From contig CAYMLS010000001.1 of assembly GCA_964390665.1 (NCBI GenBank), positions 1 to 58,872 of the forward strand: a stretch of 58,872 nt of DNA, in the 5' to 3' direction. Shown in pieces: positions 1 through 47,979 of this stretch. A model generated the notes under the pieces. It saw only the letters and a program-made list of their open reading frames with translations, searched no databases and was not told the origin of the DNA. The first letter of the stretch is position 1; each line of letters opens with the position of its first letter. The translations under genes and the position numbers were made by a program. Source of the stretch: an uncultured Bacteroidales bacterium (GTDB lineage: Bacteria > Bacteroidota > Bacteroidia > Bacteroidales > UBA7960).

Positions 1-1740
1 TCTTGTGGTTTCAGGCCATGTTCCTTGTGTAATCCATTCGTAGTATTCCAATGCTTTTGTTGCGTCTTCTGTCCAATTCCACTGACCTGATTGGGTAGGA
101 ACATCATAATTCTGGATTAATTTAGAGATTGTTTTTATTTCAGATAAACTTTCACGAATGTCATTCATTAATTTTGCTGTTTGATATTCTTCTCCGCGCG
201 CATATATCCGATATCCGAAATATGCTGTAGATACGGCTTTATGCAAGCGTGCTGTTAGCAATGTGCGGTTAAAATAATGAAATAACTCCTGATATTGCTC
301 ATCAGTTAAAAAAGGTTTGGCTTTTTCAATTTGATTTAATGACTCTTCCGTTAGTTTTATACCATATTCTTTTTCCGTTACAATATAGTCGAGATACTTC
401 TCATTCATCATTTCACCACGAGTAATCCAATTATTTTCCATTACCCATGGAATTTCATGAAGTTGAGTTCCTCCTGCCTTGGCCCAATCAGGAGCAAGTG
501 TGTTGATAATATCTTTCCAATAATGAAATTCACGGTTCACTCCATGTTCAACAAAGACCACTGGCGGATCGATCCATTTTCCGGAAACGTGACGAGCCCA
601 ATGGGATGAATAAGGATCGTAATTTAGTCGTGAGTGATTGGTCGTATTGGTTCCAAGTGTATAAAATACCGAGGTGATGATCTCAAATGCATTTTCAAAA
701 GCAGCCTTTATATGGGGCAGGGCATCTTTACTATAATTTTCGGTAATAAATTCATCATAAATATCATCGGCCGTTAAAGTTTGGTCTTCCAGATATCTTT
801 TTAAGGCATAAAGATTAATTTCAGAAGGTCGTCCAACAATTCTTGTATCTCCGAAGCGATCAGTTCTGGCAGTGTATCCGATAATATGGTCTCTTTGCAG
901 AAAATCGCTCCAACGTTTAAGGATAAATTCAGGCCAGGTGTTTGCCACAATGCCTTGCCCGTTGAACTCAGCAGCAGCATCAAATTCAATAATTGTTGGC
1001 CGGTTAATGGTTCCGGCAATAAAATCATTGGGATGTGTTAATAAAAAGTCGTGAGGTGCTTCTTTCATCATTAATCTGATCTCAGGGTAATCGAATAATT
1101 CAATGGCACCCACAATGTTCTCATATTCCTCATAGGTATAGGAGAACGTCCGGGCATACAGGTTTAATCCCCGTTCACCAATTACAACGGATGCAATAGC
1201 ATTGACGACGGCAGCCAGTTTCTCCTGATTGGTTTTTAATTTTACCGAATATTGGTCTTCAGCTCTTGCCCCGGTTTCAATAAATGTAAGGATTAAACCT
1301 TGTATATCGGGCACTATATCAAGCATTTCGCGATAATCATCTTTAAACCATTCCCAAAAAGCAGGATTATCCAGATCTATTTCTCCATTGGGCCCGGTTT
1401 TAAAACGATCGGGATAATAATCTAAATCATATAATGACCTGTCCCATAAAACAACCTCCTGGATTCCTTTGGCATGTGCATGTTTGATGATCATGTTCGC
1501 CTTTTCAAGTCTTTCCGGAATCCTGACATGCCTTAAATCATGGATAAGATCATGCGATATTTGCAAATGGTTGATATCGTAGTCAGAAGCATTGTCAACT
1601 ACAAACAAGTCCTCTGACAGGTTATCAGACAGAATCGTCCATCCTTTAACAGTTTCGTTGGATTTAAGCGGTTTAGGGTCATGTGTTTTTTGTGAACAGG
1701 CTAGTAACAAAGCCAAAAGGAAGAAAACAGTGTTTTTCAT
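1..1740 (-). CDS. Exported lipoprotein, glycoside-hydrolase-like (family not identified); 5' part only, runs off the left edge
   Basis: Minus-strand frame is open from the ATG at 1740-1738 to position 1 (580 codons checked at several points). It is missing from the ORF track only because its stop lies outside the window. The N-terminus MKNTVFFLLALLLACSQ is a lipoprotein signal with a lipobox Cys. The body (WDRSLYDLDYYPDRF, LILTFIETGARAED) looks like an enzyme fold but I cannot name the family. Confidence 0.75.
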   Translation of the reverse strand, partial: MKNTVFFLLALLLACSQKTHDPKPLKSNETVKGWTILSDNLSEDLFVVDNASDYDINHLQISHDLIHDLRHVRIPERLEKANMIIKHAHAKGIQEVVLWDRSLYDLDYYPDRFKTGPNGEIDLDNPAFWEWFKDDYREMLDIVPDIQGLILTFIETGARAEDQYSVKLKTNQEKLAAVVNAIASVVIGERGLNLYARTFSYTYEEYENIVGAIELFDYPEIRLMMKEAPHDFLLTHPNDFIAGTINRPTIIEFDAAAEFNGQGIVANTWPEFILKRWSDFLQRDHIIGYTARTDRFGDTRIVGRPSEINLYALKRYLEDQTLTADDIYDEFITENYSKDALPHIKAAFENAFEIITSVFYTLGTNTTNHSRLNYDPYSSHWARHVSGKWIDPPVVFVEHGVNREFHYWKDIINTLAPDWAKAGGTQLHEIPWVMENNWITRGEMMNEKYLDYIVTEKEYGIKLTEESLNQIEKAKPFLTDEQYQELFHYFNRTLLTARLHKAVSTAYFGYRIYARGEEYQTAKLMNDIRESLSEIKTISKLIQNYDVPTQSGQWNWTEDATKALEYYEWITQGTWPETTR

Positions 1741-1885
1741 ATTTTTACAATTTGATTAATCCGGTCAGATGAGACTGACCAGTTATTTGAATTGTGCTGC
1801 TGTGTGTGCGATTTCGCGTGATTAAAAAGCATAGCGCTGTTTATCAGTCGGTTTCAAATATAATGATTTTTTACTAATTTCACAG
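1741..1885 (-). repeat. Conserved intergenic element, copy 0 (diverged, short)
   Basis: Shares TTTGATTAATCCGGTCAGATG with copy C, plus a GTGTGTGCGA box and a TCGGTTTCAAA right end. Contains a perfect hairpin GGTCAG-atgaga-CTGACC. Lies directly upstream of the lipoprotein start codon. Confidence 0.5.
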
Positions 1886-3394: not shown

Positions 3395-4183
3395 ATCTTT
3401 GTTTAAGTTGTATGGCAATATGATATTTTGTCGTCTGAGAGTATTTTTGATCATGCATCATAAACCGGACGTAATAGGTCGTGTATTCACATATTGTCAG
3501 CAAGAAAATCCATGATTTCTATTTGTGAGCAAAGAAGAAAGCATGAAGGACAAGACTTTCAATGACGTAAAAACATGAAGATCCGAAGTAAACCGGAATG
3601 ACTGTTTCAGTCATTAAGATAAAGATTTACCTCTTTATTTAAAAACTGTTGATAACTTTCAAAAAAACATTTTTTTTAATAATCAGAAGAAACAAATCCC
3701 AATGAACTATTCATAAAACATCTATACGATATCGCTTAAACACTATATATTTCAGATCAGTTTTGTCTTTTCTTGCATTAAATCCGCCAATCATTTATCG
3801 CCTTCCATTACATCCATCAATGAATGTTAAACGAAAATTTTTCTTATAGAATAGAAAAACGGCTTCGCACATTAATTATTAACGTTACATGAGTTTTTTT
3901 ATCTTTTTTAAGTAAATTTGGTTCGCTAAAAATCAGGGTTATTTTCCTGAAGCGTCATTGATTGCTTTTTCTGACTAAGTAAAAACATCAATGGAAAGTA
4001 AGTGCGACACTGATTTTTTTGAGAAAAATTAATATTTTCATTCAAAAAGCAACTTTCAAAAAATGTTTGCGTACAATCTGATTGTCGCCTTTTAAAAAGA
4101 AATTTGAAACTTTTTGGCATTTGTATGCGAATATATACATTAGTGAAATAAAAACCAGAAATCACAATACATTAAAAGTGAAA

Positions 4184-5353
4184 GTGAAGAAAAAGATCAG
4201 TCTTTTACATACGAGTTTATTTCGTTTATTCATCTTTATCATGTGGATGAGTTATTCATGGAATGGATTTACGACAGAAAACTCAGGCACTTTTTTATCT
4301 GCCACTTTAACAGGGCAGCATACCTCCTGGCAGGATCCTGAACCCCAGATCAACAGGCAAATGCTGGAGATGTTCCTTTCGCTCAGGGACAGTGGTATCA
4401 TTACACCCACTGCCTTTGAATACATATTACAAAACCCTGAAAAAGTAAGAACCGAAGGTTGGCAAAAAGTTTTGGCAGAATACCAGGAATCATTGCAAAA
4501 ACAACAAGATCCGCTTCAGCACGATGACTTTAGAGACAAGATCGCAGAAGAGATCACCGGTATTGATACGCTTGAAGAAGAGACGGTTGCGGAAGATCAA
4601 AATTCGGATAATCAGGAAAATGCCACACAGGAAGATGAGATCCTGACAGAAGAAACCGAAGATGAATTACTGGCAGAAGAAACCGAAGATGAGATAATGG
4701 AAGAAGAAACCCTCATTGAGGAAACTGTAATTGAAGATGTGGTGATACGAAGAAATCTTGACGACACTGAAACCATTCATACGGATATCTCCAAAGTAAA
4801 TCCATCCATGGCGGATGATGCCGTGCGTTATCATGTTCAAATAGCAGCAAGTGTTACTCCACTTGAAGAAGCATACCTGCGTACGCTATACTCGGGAGAC
4901 AGAACCATCAACCATTTCCAGGAAGATGGATGGGAGAAATATTATATCGGAAACTTTTCCCGGTACAATGAAGCCCGGTCAGAATTACAAAACAATGTTG
5001 ATACCCGCGATGCCTTTGTAATTGCCTTTTTGCTGGGCAAAAAAGTAATGGCATACAAGGCCAGAATGGTAGAAGATATATTGGCCAACAGTCCTTTGGA
5101 CACTTTTCATGAAAACCCTGACAACCAATATCGTATTCAGATCGCAGCCAGTGTCAGACCCCTTTCCCTGGAATCATTGGAAAATATCTATCCCCAAACA
5201 AATCAGATCGGGATCATTTACGAAGGAGGTTGGTTCAAATATAGTATCCCCGGCGCAGAAACCAGGGAAGAATCCTGGGATATGTCTCAAAACCTCGGTG
5301 TTAACGGGTCTTTTGTGGTTCAATACCGGGCAGGTAAAAGACTGTTTCCATAA
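4184..5353 (+). CDS. Exported protein with an acidic Glu-rich linker and two SPOR-like repeats
   Basis: Track ORF 4082..5353. The likely start is GTG at 4184 (VKKKISLLHTSLFRLFIFIMW, signal-like), but the start is uncertain. An acidic run follows (EETEDELLAEETEDEIMEEETLIEE). Two similar modules begin YHVQIAASVTPLEE and YRIQIAASVRPLSLE. Confidence 0.6.
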   Translation: MKKKISLLHTSLFRLFIFIMWMSYSWNGFTTENSGTFLSATLTGQHTSWQDPEPQINRQMLEMFLSLRDSGIITPTAFEYILQNPEKVRTEGWQKVLAEYQESLQKQQDPLQHDDFRDKIAEEITGIDTLEEETVAEDQNSDNQENATQEDEILTEETEDELLAEETEDEIMEEETLIEETVIEDVVIRRNLDDTETIHTDISKVNPSMADDAVRYHVQIAASVTPLEEAYLRTLYSGDRTINHFQEDGWEKYYIGNFSRYNEARSELQNNVDTRDAFVIAFLLGKKVMAYKARMVEDILANSPLDTFHENPDNQYRIQIAASVRPLSLESLENIYPQTNQIGIIYEGGWFKYSIPGAETREESWDMSQNLGVNGSFVVQYRAGKRLFP

Positions 5354-11344: not shown

Positions 11345-11722
11345 TTATGCAAGTTTCCACCGGGTTTCTTCCTGATCACCAATATGCCATTTTCCAAACA
11401 TGCCGGTATGGTAGTTGTTTTTTTGCAATACTTCAGCAATTGTTGCAAAAGAGGGGTCAACACCCCTGGCATTGGGTCCATGTGCACCATGCATGCCGGT
11501 TCTTCCCGGATAACAACCCGTTAACAAAGCGGACCTGGAAGCGGAGCAAACCGCCTGCGGTACATAAAAATTATGAAACTGTCTGCCTTCACTGGCAAGA
11601 TCCAGAAGGTTGGGAGTTGGGTATTCATTTTCTCCGAAAATTTGTTTTCGGAGTGGATTCATCATGGCAAAAAAACACAAATGTAAGAAAAATGAATTCT
11701 GTTTCCTTTTTTTGAAAAACAA
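11345..11722 (-). pseudogene. Sulfatase remnant (about 125 codons, truncated at both ends)
   Basis: TPNLLDLASEGRQFHNFYVPQAVCSASRSALLTGCYPGRTG carries the formylglycine C-x-A/P-x-R signature, followed by MFGKWHIG. The frame stops 12 codons later, whereas intact sulfatases run about 450-500 aa. The usual N-terminal signal and metal-binding DD segment are absent. Confidence 0.6.
11628..11662. repeat. 35-nt hairpin repeat, copy 1 (second copy at 47946..47979)
   Basis: TTTCTCCGAAAAtttgTTTTCGGAGTGGATTCAT has a perfect 9-bp stem (11632-11640 / 11645-11653). It differs from the 47.9-kb copy at 2 positions. Confidence 0.6.
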
Positions 11723-26863: not shown

Positions 26864-27014
26864 TTCATCTGTTTAAAATTTGATTAATTCGGTTCTCGTT
26901 TTTTCAACGAGAGAGCTCGCCAACAGGCTGACTGCATGTTTTACCATGCCACGAATGATAATCATGCGCGTGTGTGTTAAAAATTTTGTCGTAACTCGGT
27001 TCATCCTTTTAAAA
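26864..27014 (-). repeat. Conserved intergenic element, copy A (upstream of SusC)
   Basis: Near-identical to copies E and D over most of its length. Flanked by the direct repeats TTCATCTGTTTAAAA (26864-26878) and TTCATCCTTTTAAAA (27000-27014). Confidence 0.8.
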
Positions 27015-30408: not shown

Positions 30409-30560
30409 GTTCATCTGTTTATTATTTGATTAAAGCGGTCGCCGTTCTTTTCTTAAGAGGGAGATCGCCAAAAATACTCTGACTGCATGCCCGAGCATCC
30501 TGCGAATTATTATCATCCGCGTGCGTGTCAATGTACATTGTCATGGCTCGGTTCATTTTT
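30409..30560 (-). repeat. Conserved intergenic element, copy B (upstream of the DUF362/T9SS gene)
   Basis: All consensus modules are present, with a different hairpin sequence. Its distal end overlaps the stop codon of the preceding gene (ATGA at 30553-30556). Confidence 0.75.
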
Positions 30561-31584: not shown

Positions 31585-31893
31585 TTACAGGGATTTACAC
31601 AAGTGAAATAAAAATATGTGATTCAAGGATGCTGTAAAAATCACATTCAAATCCGGATACCAAAAATAGTAAAAAAATATTAAGATGAAGTATTTTTCAA
31701 CAGCATTTTGCCGAAAATGTGAATTTTTTACATAGAAAAGCATGATTATACCGTTGAGAACCAATTGTATGTCGATGGAAAAAGTATCACGAAATATATT
31801 ATCAACAATAATTAGTGCCAGCAAAAAAACTCCTGCTTTTTGTGTCTTTGATAAGAAATCTTCGAAGACATGGCTTTCGTCTTGTTTTCTCAA
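31585..31893 (-). CDS. Possible small membrane protein (weak)
   Basis: 102-codon ORF with a TTG start and 3-4 hydrophobic stretches, lying between element C and the CBM9-like gene. The region is AT-rich, so it may be spurious. Confidence 0.2.
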   Translation of the reverse strand: MRKQDESHVFEDFLSKTQKAGVFLLALIIVDNIFRDTFSIDIQLVLNGIIMLFYVKNSHFRQNAVEKYFILIFFYYFWYPDLNVIFTASLNHIFLFHLCKSL

Positions 31894-31905
31894 CGAGATG
31901 ACTGA

Positions 31906-32060
31906 TTCATCTGTTTATAGTTTGATTAATTCGGTCAGATGCCTGCCCCGTTCTTTTCTTTAGGGGGAGCTTGCCAATAATGTCAGACACGTTCAAATTA
32001 GTTTCGGGTGAAATGATCATCCCTCTGAGTGTCAAAATAATTTAGAGGTTCGGTTCAAAA
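31906..32060 (-). repeat. Conserved intergenic element, copy C (most diverged full-length copy)
   Basis: Conserved ends (TTCATCTGTTTATAGTTTGATTAATTCGGT ... GATCATCC ... GTGTCAAAATAA ... GGTTCGGTTCAAAAAC). The hairpin is replaced by CCCC/GGGG. Confidence 0.65.
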
Positions 32061-32135
32061 ACGACAATAACGCAATATTTGGCATTTTCTTGCAAAGACC
32101 TTACAAAAACTAAGTATCAAAAAAAGAATCCCGGA

Positions 32136-38098: not shown

Positions 38099-39193
38099 TT
38101 AAAAATAATGGACCGGATTGGTACTGTGTTTTGAAATTTGGAGTGCAAAGTTAGCAAATTTTTCCTTTAATAATTCAACTAATATTTCGGTCGTAAATTG
38201 TTCACTTTCATAATGTCCCACATCTGCCACAAGCATCTGATGCTGGTATTCAAAAAACTCATGAAACTTTATATCTGCCGTAAGAAATGCATCCGCCCCG
38301 CTTCGAAAAGCAGCATCCATTAAAAAACTACCGCTTCCTCCACAAATGGCAATTTTTTTCAGTTTTCTGTCAGAAAAACCATTATGCCGTACCACAGGAA
38401 CATGCAAAACTTTTTTTACCTGTTCTAAGAACAACATTTCAGGCATTTCTTCATCCAGGAAACCGGCCATGCCTCCTCCTGTTTTTTCATGTTTGTTCTC
38501 AAGCGGATAAATATCAAAAGCCACTTCTTCGTAAGGGTGAGCATTGATCATAGCATCTACCACCTGCGACTGTATAAATTCAGGAAAAATGGTTTCCACC
38601 CTGATTTCTTTTTCATAATGAACTTCTCCAATTTTCCCTACAAAAGGGTTGGATTGGTCTCCGGCTCTAAAACTACCCGTTCCTTCCAAATTAAAACTAC
38701 AACAGTCATAATCGCCAATATATCCGGCACCAGCGCTGAATATAGCATCCCGGACTTTACCGGCATGATCAGCAGGACAAAAAACAACCAGCTTTTTTAG
38801 TATCCCGGGTTTTGGGTCGAGAACAGATAAATCCGACAGACCAAGTTTTTCCGCCAACTTACGGTTCACTCCCGTTTTCACGAAATCAAGGTTGGTATGT
38901 ACCGACAAAAGTGCAATATCATTTTGAATCGCTTTCACAAGGGTCCTTTGGGTATAATGACCTCCTGTAATACTTTTCATCCCCTTAAAAAGCAACGGAT
39001 GGTGTGAAATAATAAGATCAGACCCCGTGTTTTTGGCTTCTTCTACGATTTTTTCAGTAATATCAACACAAACCAATCCTTTGTGTATCTCCTTATCCGG
39101 ATCTCCATACTGGATACCAGAATTATCATATCCCTCCTGAAGAGAAAAGGGTGCAAACTGATCAACTGCGGAAACAATTTCCTTAAGATTCAT
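38099..39193 (-). CDS. Nif3-family dinuclear-metal-centre protein (GTP cyclohydrolase 1 type 2 homolog)
   Basis: 364 aa with YDNSGIQYG, LIISHHPLLF and a C-terminal HYESEQF motif. Confidence 0.88.
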   Translation of the reverse strand: MNLKEIVSAVDQFAPFSLQEGYDNSGIQYGDPDKEIHKGLVCVDITEKIVEEAKNTGSDLIISHHPLLFKGMKSITGGHYTQRTLVKAIQNDIALLSVHTNLDFVKTGVNRKLAEKLGLSDLSVLDPKPGILKKLVVFCPADHAGKVRDAIFSAGAGYIGDYDCCSFNLEGTGSFRAGDQSNPFVGKIGEVHYEKEIRVETIFPEFIQSQVVDAMINAHPYEEVAFDIYPLENKHEKTGGGMAGFLDEEMPEMLFLEQVKKVLHVPVVRHNGFSDRKLKKIAICGGSGSFLMDAAFRSGADAFLTADIKFHEFFEYQHQMLVADVGHYESEQFTTEILVELLKEKFANFALQISKHSTNPVHYF

Positions 39194-39420
39194 GTGTCTG
39201 AATTTTGTTTTTTAATGGTCACATGAAATGTCCGTTAATGGTCATCCTTCTGTGTATGAAGGAAATCATCCTGGATGCTTCATATGATTTCATTTTATTT
39301 TTGGTTGTCTTCCCCTAAAATGAGGATTTCGCGATGATTCTTTGAAAGGGGAAGTCAATGTTGGCAGACTCAACCGATGTTGGTTGTTTCAATGTCCCAT
39401 ATGTTCGGTTCGTATTATTC
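39188..39420 (-). repeat. Conserved intergenic element, copy F (rearranged/expanded, degenerate)
   Basis: The left end TTCATGTGTCTGAATTTTGTTTTTTAATGGTC resembles TTCATCTGTTTAAAATTTGATTAATTCGGT. The right end GTCAATGTTGG...TTTCAATG...GTTCGGTTCGT resembles copy E. The middle is different and carries an 8-bp long-range stem CTTCCCCT/AGGGGAAG. Confidence 0.4.
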
Positions 39421-41549: not shown

Positions 41550-41740
41550 TTCATCTGAAAAACCGATTAATGAATGAATTACCGGATCAAAGATTGTCTC
41601 TTTTTGTCTGATTATAATTTGTCTTTCAATTTTTCAACGAGAGAGATCGCCAACAGGTTGCCTGCATGCTTTACCATGTCGCTATTTACAATCATCCACG
41701 CGTGTGTCAAAATTTTTGTCATGGCCCGGCTCAACCTACC
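41550..41740 (-). repeat. Conserved intergenic element, copy D (between the sigma-factor gene and uvrA)
   Basis: The core 41631-41740 is close to copy A. The gene-proximal module (TTAATC...CAGATGAA) is displaced by a roughly 45-nt insert. Confidence 0.7.
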
Positions 41741-41822
41741 CAAAAAAGTCTTTGGGGAATTTATTTTTTTGAACATTTGACAACAAAGTTTACTTAAGGT
41801 AAAAGTTTTGCCATGATAATGG

Positions 41823-44757: not shown

Positions 44758-44953
44758 CCAACATGTAAAAATCAGATTTAATAGAAACCTGTATTATTTA
44801 GTGTCAGCAGGAAAACTCATGATTTGATCTGTGCCTAATAAAAAAGAGCGTCAAGTGCAAGGGGGTTGATGAGGGCAAAACAGGGGTTTGCTTTTTATAA
44901 GTGACTGTTTTGAAGGCGAACCCAACGCTGCAAGTGGCGTTTTCTTGCAAAGA

Positions 44954-47660: not shown

Positions 47661-47817
47661 GGTTCATCTGTTTATCATTTGATTAAATCGGTTCTCGTTT
47701 TTTCAACGAGAGATCTCGCCAACATTCTGACTGCATGTTTTACCATGCCACGAAATATAATCATCCGTCCTCGGCGTGTGTGTCAATATTGGTTTCATGG
47801 TTCGGTTCATCATCATT
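47661..47817 (-). repeat. Conserved intergenic element, copy E (upstream of the DUF1987 gene)
   Basis: By eye it differs from copy A at only about six positions over the first ~90 nt. Flanked by GGTTCATC...ATCATT at both ends (47661-47679 and 47804-47817). Confidence 0.8.
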
Positions 47818-47945: not shown

Positions 47946-47979
47946 TTTCTCCGAAAACTTGTTTTCGGAGTGGACTCAT
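47946..47979. repeat. 35-nt hairpin repeat, copy 2
   Basis: TTTCTCCGAAAActtgTTTTCGGAGTGGACTCAT with a perfect 9-bp stem (47949-47957 / 47962-47970), about 130 nt from element E. Confidence 0.6.

Follow-up and report, generated by a model that had tools for sequence, protein, structure and literature searches.

The DNA analysed here (the window) is a stretch of 58,872 nucleotides (nt) from an uncultured Bacteroidales bacterium (contig CAYMLS010000001.1, assembly GCA_964390665.1), whose gene content is that of the Bacteroidota and includes SusC/SusD, a cargo protein of the type IX secretion system (T9SS), an extracytoplasmic function (ECF) sigma factor, ProRS, MurB and UvrA. Its intergenic regions carry a family of short repeats, all on the minus strand, for which we use the copy upstream of the SusC gene as the type copy (copy A, ~90 nt from the SusC start at about 26776). 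As described below, these repeats are probably miniature mobile elements that descend from an insertion sequence (IS) of the IS110 family, and they have a marked affinity for the start codons of genes. Coordinates of the individual features are collected in Table 1.

The initial annotation of this DNA had described seven homologous copies with one order of modules and a single polarity. A profile built from copies A to E recovers exactly these five loci in the window, with E-values of 1e-18 to 1e-29 (nhmmer), and the order of modules was correct, as was the polarity, which is also shared by the two more problematic members, F and copy 0. The closeness of A and E that had been remarked upon amounts to 91% identity over 105 nt in a repeat search, and a strict 23-base pattern matches A, B, D and E, with no match in shuffled sequence. 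The count of seven stands with qualifications. Copy 0 is significant only in its 3' module (1736-1786), its left end being weak (TTGAA / ACCGAC, where the spaced slash, here and below, marks a junction), and it is best regarded as a diverged member. Copy F scores poorly against the long-type profile (E 2-4), but its 3' half is a copy of a shorter subfamily (alignment score of 79 with its counterpart at locus L076, the best of 200 shuffles reaching 24); the unit upstream of it is not significant by nhmmer, and only its end motifs are recognisable. Among the five clear copies, D has an intact left end (junction TTGAG) and a degenerate right end (CAAATTATAATCAGAC) from which the ATGAA has been lost, the 5' ATGAA of B overlaps the stop codon of the CBM9 gene, and C is nested within a unit of a second repeat family (31815-32105). 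Altogether, the density of elements is 5-7 copies per 59 kb.

Read in the direction of the downstream gene, the consensus of 78 copies is ATGAA-CCGAGCCATGACAA-n5-TTGACACACACGCGGATGATTATAATTCG-(variable, ~35 nt)-TTTTGGCGAGCTC-(optional hairpin)-CATCTGACC-n-TTTAATCAAATTATAAACAG-ATGAA. The elements are about 90-180 nt in size and have no transposase gene inside. Conservation is limited to the two ends, which we refer to as the left end (LE, of which small elements keep ~50 nt) and the right end (RE, 20-60 nt), and the interior differs between three subfamilies, termed long, type 2 (150-220 nt) and short (about 93 nt). No terminal inverted repeats (TIRs) are found between the ends CCGAGCC... and ...AAACAG. 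The optional hairpin occupies one fixed position in 17 of the 78 copies (columns 117-160 of alignment A3), and its stems vary yet are complementary (CCCCCG/CGGGG, CCCGC/GCGGG, TCTGCC/GGCAGA and CTCGTT/AACGAG). Window copies A, D and E carry it, B and C have variants of it, and it is not followed by a T-run on either strand. RNAalifold finds 0 consensus pairs in 78 sense and 53 antisense sequences, single-sequence folds are unremarkable (z of -1.9 to +0.2), and the earlier failure to recognise a known RNA family is borne out by Rfam, which has nothing relevant for the whole window at the gathering threshold or for the type copy at E-values up to 10. A conserved open reading frame (ORF) that would begin at the 5' ATG and extend across the element was considered and rejected, because the frame differs between subfamilies (ATG AAC CGA GCC ATG... 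in the long type, ATG AAA CAT CCA TGA in type 2).

The LE also holds perfect E. coli-type TTGACA and TATAAT hexamers (window 26955-26985, minus strand; consensus ~28-53), which are only 14 nt apart and highly conserved across copies; one possibility is that they are part of a junction promoter in a circular form of the element. Variants with an unusual interior were seen at locus L047 (1580-1790 and 3765-3950), where the interior is made up of short tandem repeats (GAGACTTAAGAGACTTAAGAGA... and GCGATGATGCGATGATGC...) and the element still ends in ...ATATGAA or ...CAGATGAA at a gene start. At locus L081 (190-370), two partial copies (5' halves) are joined head-to-head, which suggests a rearrangement through recombination between inverted copies.

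Outside of the window, more than 200 further copies are present in public collections. Scanning one genome per species with the 3' module located at least 79 genome loci, nearly all in a few uncultured Bacteroidales metagenome-assembled genomes (MAGs), and 89 further loci come from metagenomes; one MAG holds at least about 35 element loci. The Bacteroidales carriers include soda-lake sediment MAGs, and the metagenome carriers are soda-lake and marine. Plasmid and phage collections contain no match to the element. (A first search pattern, CATGCAGKCARN{3,8}TTGGCGANNTCNCTC, gave 0 matches in the genome and metagenome collections, being too specific to the subfamily of the window.) The first set of genome loci comprises 109 copies, many of which lie at contig ends (nhmmer). 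The element breaks assemblies in the way that high-copy repeats do, and this explains the fragmented MAG assemblies in this Bacteroidales clade. Copies also occur in tandem arrays of 2-4; there are many head-to-tail pairs with a period of ~126 nt, in which a single ATGAA is common to the two neighbours, and of the 221 right ends for which 100 nt or more of downstream sequence was available, 58 directly precede another left end.

The element comes and goes between relatives. Relatives of the ProRS at 95-96% amino-acid identity lie on contigs that are syntenic with the window at ~82% DNA identity. In L004, the site of copy B is empty, and the CBM9 and DUF362 genes are 45 nt apart, against 183 nt in the window. 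The empty site reads ...AATAATGAA / TTCTAC... and the window reads ...AAAAATGAA(copy B)CTTGCATC..., so that ATGAA is present once in the empty site and at both junctions of the filled one. There is no copy upstream of SusC in the orthologous region of L001, and the MurB-Nif3 spacer, which is 381 nt in the window, is 62 nt in L001. At the site of copy D, the intergenic region of the L001 ortholog is ~125 nt shorter and has no match to the element, but the flanks have diverged, and so this is not a clean empty site. In L001, the copy downstream of ProRS precedes a second, partial element, and the L004 copy in this position is oriented opposite to both ProRS and the CBM9 gene.

First copies are flanked on the 5' side by ATGAA (A 78, T 82, G 84, A 91 and A 98%) after an A/T-rich stretch, with little else conserved. 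At the opposite end, the base following the 3' ATGAA is an A in 128 of 163 terminal copies (79%), and an ORF of 80 codons or more begins at the terminal ATG in 74 of them (45%), compared with 13 of 326 in two control frames. Within the window, the terminal ATG of copy 0 (1740-1738) is the start codon of the lipoprotein gene (translation from 1740 gives MKNTVFFLLALLLACSQ...), and that of the F copy (39193-39191) is the start codon of Nif3. The initial annotation had every element abutting the 5' end of a gene or operon; this is literally the case for these two, whereas 10-300 nt separate the others from the next ORF downstream. In A, D and E, the sequence between the element and the gene contains, by eye, a -7 box of the Bacteroidota type, which places the element upstream of the promoter. 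The downstream gene is on the same strand as the element in 58 cases and on the opposite strand in 10 (crude ORF calls), and the upstream gene is less biased. Relative to the direction of replication, as estimated from GC skew, the ratio is 60:34, a weak bias that is confounded with gene orientation (r of 0.48) and indicates nothing beyond it.

The initial annotation considered a shared cis-regulatory 5' leader or promoter cassette, acting at the RNA or DNA level and defining one regulon. The location upstream of genes with a 58:10 co-orientation, the frequent use of the element's 3' end as a translation start, and a CATCTG...CAGATG pairing that could mask the AUG are all compatible with such a role, and it is possible that a mobile element has acquired an exapted regulatory side-effect. 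However, the CATCTG partner is missing in window copies A, B, D and E, the -7 box of A, D and E is downstream of the element, and there is neither a consensus RNA structure nor an Rfam match. Moreover, the downstream genes are functionally unrelated (SusC, the T9SS cargo protein, Nif3, the ECF sigma factor and SiaC in the window; GcvT, DivIC and an Xre antitoxin elsewhere), orthologous genes of related genomes do without the element, and the tandem arrays and the copies at contig ends also speak against a regulon, which we consider improbable.

A parent element was identified by screening for left ends without a nearby right end. The screen returned two metagenome contigs, L136 and L146, in which a left end is followed by a transposase gene. 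The complete IS is ~1.5 kb long, and consists of a left end of the form A(C/T)NNCCATGAC...ACACACAGGAGGATGATTAT, a gene for a transposase of 414-417 amino acids (aa), a structured 3' non-coding region of ~190 nt, and a right end ...ATAAACAGATGAA, with the general form ...ATAAACA(G/C)ATGAA. In L136, a tandem array of small elements leads into the IS at ...AAACAGATGAA / ACACCCATGACAAAGTTTTTGACACACAGGAGGATGATTATT..., and a 417-aa ORF follows ~85 nt later, the product of which matches DEDD_Tnp_IS110 (6.6e-29) and Transposase_20 (4.2e-23). After this gene come ~195 nt of non-coding DNA, ending in ...GAATTATAAACACATGAA, of which the terminal ATG starts the next gene, an Xre-type antitoxin. L146 has the same layout, with a split transposase gene. 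Relatives of the transposase at 70-100% identity number in the thousands, and most are on contigs of 1.5-2 kb, which is what a multicopy IS would be expected to produce. Some 25 further IS loci that were fetched have the same ends, with ATGAA at both junctions. One of them, in Algoriphagus sp. GCA_024305035.1, is preceded by short elements in tandem, an arrangement also seen in L174 and L180. Database gene calls start exactly at the terminal ATG of the IS in 10 loci (by arithmetic from gene tables and offsets).

The small elements and the IS are connected by their ends. An LE profile that was made from small elements only matches the left ends of the IS, directly upstream of the transposase genes, with E-values of 1e-10 to 1e-6 (1.4e-10 for L136; 5e-10 for L181, L183 and L184; 3e-9 for L146; 1e-7 for L173). 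The RE sequence ...ATAAACA(G/C)ATGAA ends every full-length IS examined, and the match between the right ends of small elements and IS is short (E 1e-3 to 0.1). In addition, both kinds of element occupy the same type of site, participate in the same arrays, and end in the start codon of a gene. The earlier observation that the window encodes no mobile-element protein is correct for the window itself, where a tblastn search with the L136 transposase finds no transposase gene, but elsewhere the same ends flank a transposase gene of the IS110 family.

In five IS copies, the 3' non-coding regions are readily aligned and fold into two stem-loops, in which 5 pairs keep pairing despite two-sided changes, and each stem-loop contains one ATGAA box. 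Box 1 has the form CCCCG-NNN-ATGAA-AC/AT, in which NNN tracks the left target flank of the IS (box/flank combinations of CAG/CAG, AAA/AAA, AGA/AGA, CAG/CAG, TAG/CAG and TAT/AAT). An IS variant with TAC in box 1 was found at six distinct insertion sites, all ending in AC, and for a variant with AAC, the last base is matched in 8 of 9 sites and the second-last in 5 of 9. The dinucleotide after ATGAA in box 1 tracks the one with which the IS begins (AC, or AT for L174 and L201). Box 2 has the form GCATG-NAN-ATGAA-AA, with C where the right end is ...ACACATGAA (L136 and L201) and G where it is ...ACAGATGAA. The covariation of box 1 with the target and of box 2 with the end of the IS is the pattern expected of bridge/seek-RNA guides, and the region is a candidate bridge or seek RNA, without an Rfam family (an Rfam search of full IS loci returned nothing). 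Its conserved core occurs only in full IS copies, and was not found in the window, in the 8-kb flanks of MAG copies, or in any small element.

These comparisons lead us to favour, with a probability of roughly 0.8, the interpretation that the elements are non-autonomous deletion derivatives of a Bacteroidota IS110-family insertion sequence, similar in kind to miniature transposable elements with inverted repeats (MITEs). This corresponds to the third candidate of the initial annotation, a strand-specific miniature mobile element, and the ends in common with full IS110-family elements support it. The small elements would have been derived by loss of the recombinase gene and the guide region of the IS; as they lack both, both would be needed in trans, and the small elements would be mobilised in this manner. 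Movement may proceed via a circular intermediate, with bridge/seek-RNA-guided recombination within ATGAA, and the junction of the circle (RE-ATGAA-LE) would read ...AAACAGATGAA / CCGAGCCATGAC.... The IS and its miniatures are located directly 3' of an ATGAA in an A/T-rich context, and themselves end in ATGAA. An insertion at a start codon (ATG AA.) would thus preserve the start codon while giving the gene a different upstream region, with a possible effect on expression of the downstream gene, and head-to-tail arrays would arise because each insertion recreates a target.

Several points weigh against this interpretation. No transposase was detected in the MAG loci by tblastn with the L136 transposase, nor in their 8-kb flanks, and among the IS found none has the exact long-type left end (CCGAGCC), as every IS starts with AC or AT and the long subfamily with CC. 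The covariation of the boxes is based on ~8 distinct IS variants, and in one of these (the P0176 group) box 1 is only partly followed. A target of ATGAA plus 2-3 nt is much shorter than the ~11-14 nt of IS621-type bridge RNAs, and a double-stranded circle of 126-136 bp would be a very small excision intermediate. Finally, the location of all window copies on one strand is more uniform than the 58:10 bias alone predicts.

The remaining explanations account for less of what is seen. A paralogous small-RNA gene family, on the plus (antisense) or minus strand, is highly improbable in our view, although Bacteroides has multi-copy small-RNA families, the plus strand of the element has TTTAnnnTTTG near its TTCATC end, and copy D is followed by a hairpin and T-run on the plus strand (~41745-41775). 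The other copies have no such terminator, and the promoter-like box, judged by eye, is TAnnnTTTG, with a spacing that differs from the Bacteroidota consensus of TAnnTTTG and a -33 position that falls outside of the element. The absence of a conserved structure on either strand by RNAalifold and of an Rfam match further undermines the antisense small RNA that had been suggested initially, as do the swapping of the interior between subfamilies, with only the ends kept, and the fact that the same ends bound a transposase gene.

It was also considered that the elements might be of the IS200/IS605 type, i.e., palindrome-associated transposable elements (PATEs) that are moved as single-stranded DNA by a Y1 HUH transposase and insert 3' of ATGAA. 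This model was abandoned after the IS110-type full-length elements with the same ends were found, and we give it very little credence. It would be in keeping with the lack of TIRs, the specific 5-nt target on the 5' side with the same 5 nt at the 3' end, the orientation-specific insertion and the very small size, and one related MAG (L046) has a Y1_Tnp gene. That gene, however, is flanked by unrelated hairpins resembling repetitive extragenic palindromic (REP) sequences rather than by the ends described here, no other Y1 gene is present in ~1 Mb of flanks, DNA folds reveal no similar subterminal hairpins at the two ends, and only IS110-family recombinases are encoded by full-length elements with these ends. 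The L046 hairpins read GGGGCTTTAGCCCC and GGCTGAAGCCAACGGCAATGGATAG, and the locus is a system of the REP-associated tyrosine transposase (RAYT) type that is unrelated to the element under study. Least probable of all are host repeats of the REP or REPIN (paired, inverted REP) type, spread by a domesticated RAYT or by recombination and resembling IS110 ends by chance, for despite the high copy number, the intergenic location and the presence of a RAYT-like gene in the lineage, the elements are neither palindromic nor in inverted pairs, the likeness of the LE to IS ends is highly significant and falls exactly at the IS boundary, and small elements and IS have the same junction, target and arrays. 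A classical TIR MITE was rejected because the elements lack TIRs and their junction repeat is of fixed sequence.

Table 1. Positions of the repeat elements, their modules and related features (positions refer to the window unless a locus is named).
Feature	Position	Strand	Evidence or remarks
Copy A (type copy, long subfamily)	26864..27004	-	nhmmer E 6.5e-29
Copy A, minus-strand reading			5' ATGAA / CCGAGTTACGAC...TTAACACACACGCGCATGATTAT...TTGGCGAGCTC-(hairpin)-AACCGAATTAATCAAATTTTAAACAG ATGAA 3'
LE module of copy A with its 5' junction (ATGAA, 27000-27004)	26953..27004	-	LE profile, window copies E 5e-13
RE module of copy A (...TTAATCAAATTTTAAACAGATGAA); 3' junction ATGAA = 26864-26868	26864..26893	-	RE profile E 1.7e-8
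Optional GC hairpin module of copy A (TCTCGTT-GAAAA-AACGAGA), between GAGCTC and RE	26894..26912	-	
Copy B, between CBM9-like gene and DUF362/T9SS gene	30410..30556	-	nhmmer E 8e-28
Copy C, downstream of ProRS; 5' junction TTGAA	31906..32058	-	nhmmer E 7e-20
Copy D, divergent UvrA / ECF-sigma intergenic region	41606..41734	-	nhmmer E 1.3e-18
Copy E, ~180 nt upstream of SiaC/DUF1987 gene start	47663..47810	-	nhmmer E 2.5e-26
Short-subfamily copy (3' half of F)	39189..39285	-	76/97 identical to L076:7172-7266
Possible degenerate upstream unit of F array (ACGAA / CCGAAC start, AAAATGAA end)	39286..39413	-	membership uncertain; end motifs only
Copy 0, diverged member	1736..1857	-	3' module significant, RE profile E 8.6e-7
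3' non-coding region of parent IS	L136:619-823; L146:1499-1683; L173:2749-2946; L174:2743-2944; L180:4252-4445	- (L136)	
IS200-like Y1 transposase gene	L046:3972-4421	+	Pfam Y1_Tnp 6.4e-22; REP-like hairpin flanks 3840-3930 and 4425-4570
Second repeat family, ~150 nt	31815-32105; 44810-44950	-	also in L016, L057, L066, L077 and L081

Other repeats are present in the window as well. The second repeat family has inverted repeats at its ends (CTTTGCAAGAAAAC ... GTTTTCTTGCAGG) and a hairpin inside (GTCTTTGA...TCAAAGAC), and looks like a classical MITE of the TIR type. One of its window copies has element C nested in it and the other is "empty"; the composite of the second repeat unit and a nested element, as at C, occurs at least 5 times in one MAG (co1_359). 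The possibility of a multi-copy gene downstream of C was dismissed, as the corresponding L081 "ORF" is a tRNA-Ser gene read in antisense, and the flank in common is the second repeat unit. A 34-nt repeat (94% identical; 11629-11662 and 47946-47979) encodes the sulfatase-like N-terminus MxPLRKQxFGE, and its second copy, immediately upstream of element E, resembles a fragment of a pseudogene within a spurious 85-aa ORF. On the plus strand at 4631-4726, four tandem 27-nt units (GAAGATGAGATCCTGACAGAAGAAACC) within the ORF at 4082-5353 form an in-frame acidic (E/D-rich) peptide repeat.

Bridge-RNA IS110 elements (IS621) were reportedly described by Durrant et al. in 2024. Elements of the IS110 family are RNA-guided, lack inverted repeats at their termini, and are able to mobilise a small module bearing the ends of the element (PMC11187229, PMC12288879). 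The module in question, ssr9, accompanies ISPpu9 of Pseudomonas putida KT2440 and is bounded by near-copies of the end boxes of this IS; it occurs alone or beside the IS, is in some cases duplicated in tandem, and is circularised by the IS transposase into minicircles of its own (PMC12288879). It has been registered as MITEPpu9, with 8 copies, carries a small-RNA gene, and targets REP sequences (PMC12288879). The present elements resemble MITEPpu9 in being transposase-less modules with IS-like ends, no terminal inverted repeats and a short identical core at both junctions (AG for MITEPpu9), and in occurring both alone and beside the IS, with some tandem duplication. In contrast, they are 90-160 nt long, very abundant and divided into several subfamilies, and contain no conserved RNA; their junctions show a repeat of 5 nt (ATGAA), they are placed at or close to start codons, and they regenerate their target.

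The parent IS likewise resembles the bridge-RNA or seekRNA elements IS621, ISEc11, ISKpn4 and ISEc21 in its DEDD plus Transposase_20 recombinase, its lack of terminal inverted repeats and its site- and orientation-specific insertion (PMC11187229). The long non-coding region of IS110/IS1111 elements, which encodes an RNA with short matches to target and donor, has its counterpart here in the 3' region with its two stem-loops and two boxes. The Bacteroidota IS differs as follows: at 414-417 aa its recombinase is as large as those of the IS110 subgroup, but its long non-coding region lies downstream, like that of IS1111 types; a constant ATGAA is part of both boxes, and specificity is apparently given only by ATGAA and 2-3 programmable bases; and the target coincides with translation starts, with the right end of the IS regenerating the start codon. 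The PATEs of the IS200/IS605 group are comparable in being tiny, strand-specific, without terminal inverted repeats and located 3' of a fixed motif of 4-5 nt, but they belong with a different enzyme family, and neither subterminal hairpins nor a Y1 partner were found for the present elements. The Correia elements of Neisseria are classical TIR MITEs that duplicate TA, insert in either orientation and depend on DDE transposases. Like them, the present elements are high-copy sequences of about 100-150 nt in the 5' regions of genes and may enter transcripts, but they lack the terminal inverted repeats, the TA duplication, the insertion in either orientation and the DDE mobilisation. In the literature searched, we found nothing specific on MITEs or IS110 elements that target start codons, and MITEPpu9 was the only MITE-like IS110 derivative. 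The terms "start codon", "MITE" and "tandem" led to nothing relevant in the seekRNA paper (PMC11187229), and the introduction and discussion of the ISPpu9 paper mention no such start-codon target (PMC12288879).

In practical terms, repeats of this family should be masked as mobile DNA in genome annotation, and not be interpreted as a regulon signal or an RNA family. The principle exemplified by MITEPpu9 has here given rise to a very abundant and diversified family. The target, a start-codon motif (ATGAA) that is regenerated by the end of the IS, was not found described in the part of the literature that was searched, and its regeneration makes insertion non-disruptive and self-propagating, hence the arrays. 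The covariation of the boxes provides a ready-made data set on the reprogramming of bridge/seek RNAs, and the very short specificity that it suggests bears on the off-target behaviour of bridge recombinases. Taken as a whole, with slightly better than even odds in our estimation, there may be a lineage of Bacteroidota IS110-family recombinases with an RNA guide fixed on the translation-start motif (NN)ATGAA(A), in which the 2-3 nt beside ATGAA are apparently reprogrammed naturally between IS variants. The IS and hundreds of guide-less derivatives of 90-160 nt would then insert between the 5' untranslated region and the start codon of a gene, regenerate the start codon, and stack as portable 5' leaders that could rewire the translation or transcription of numerous genes while leaving these unbroken.

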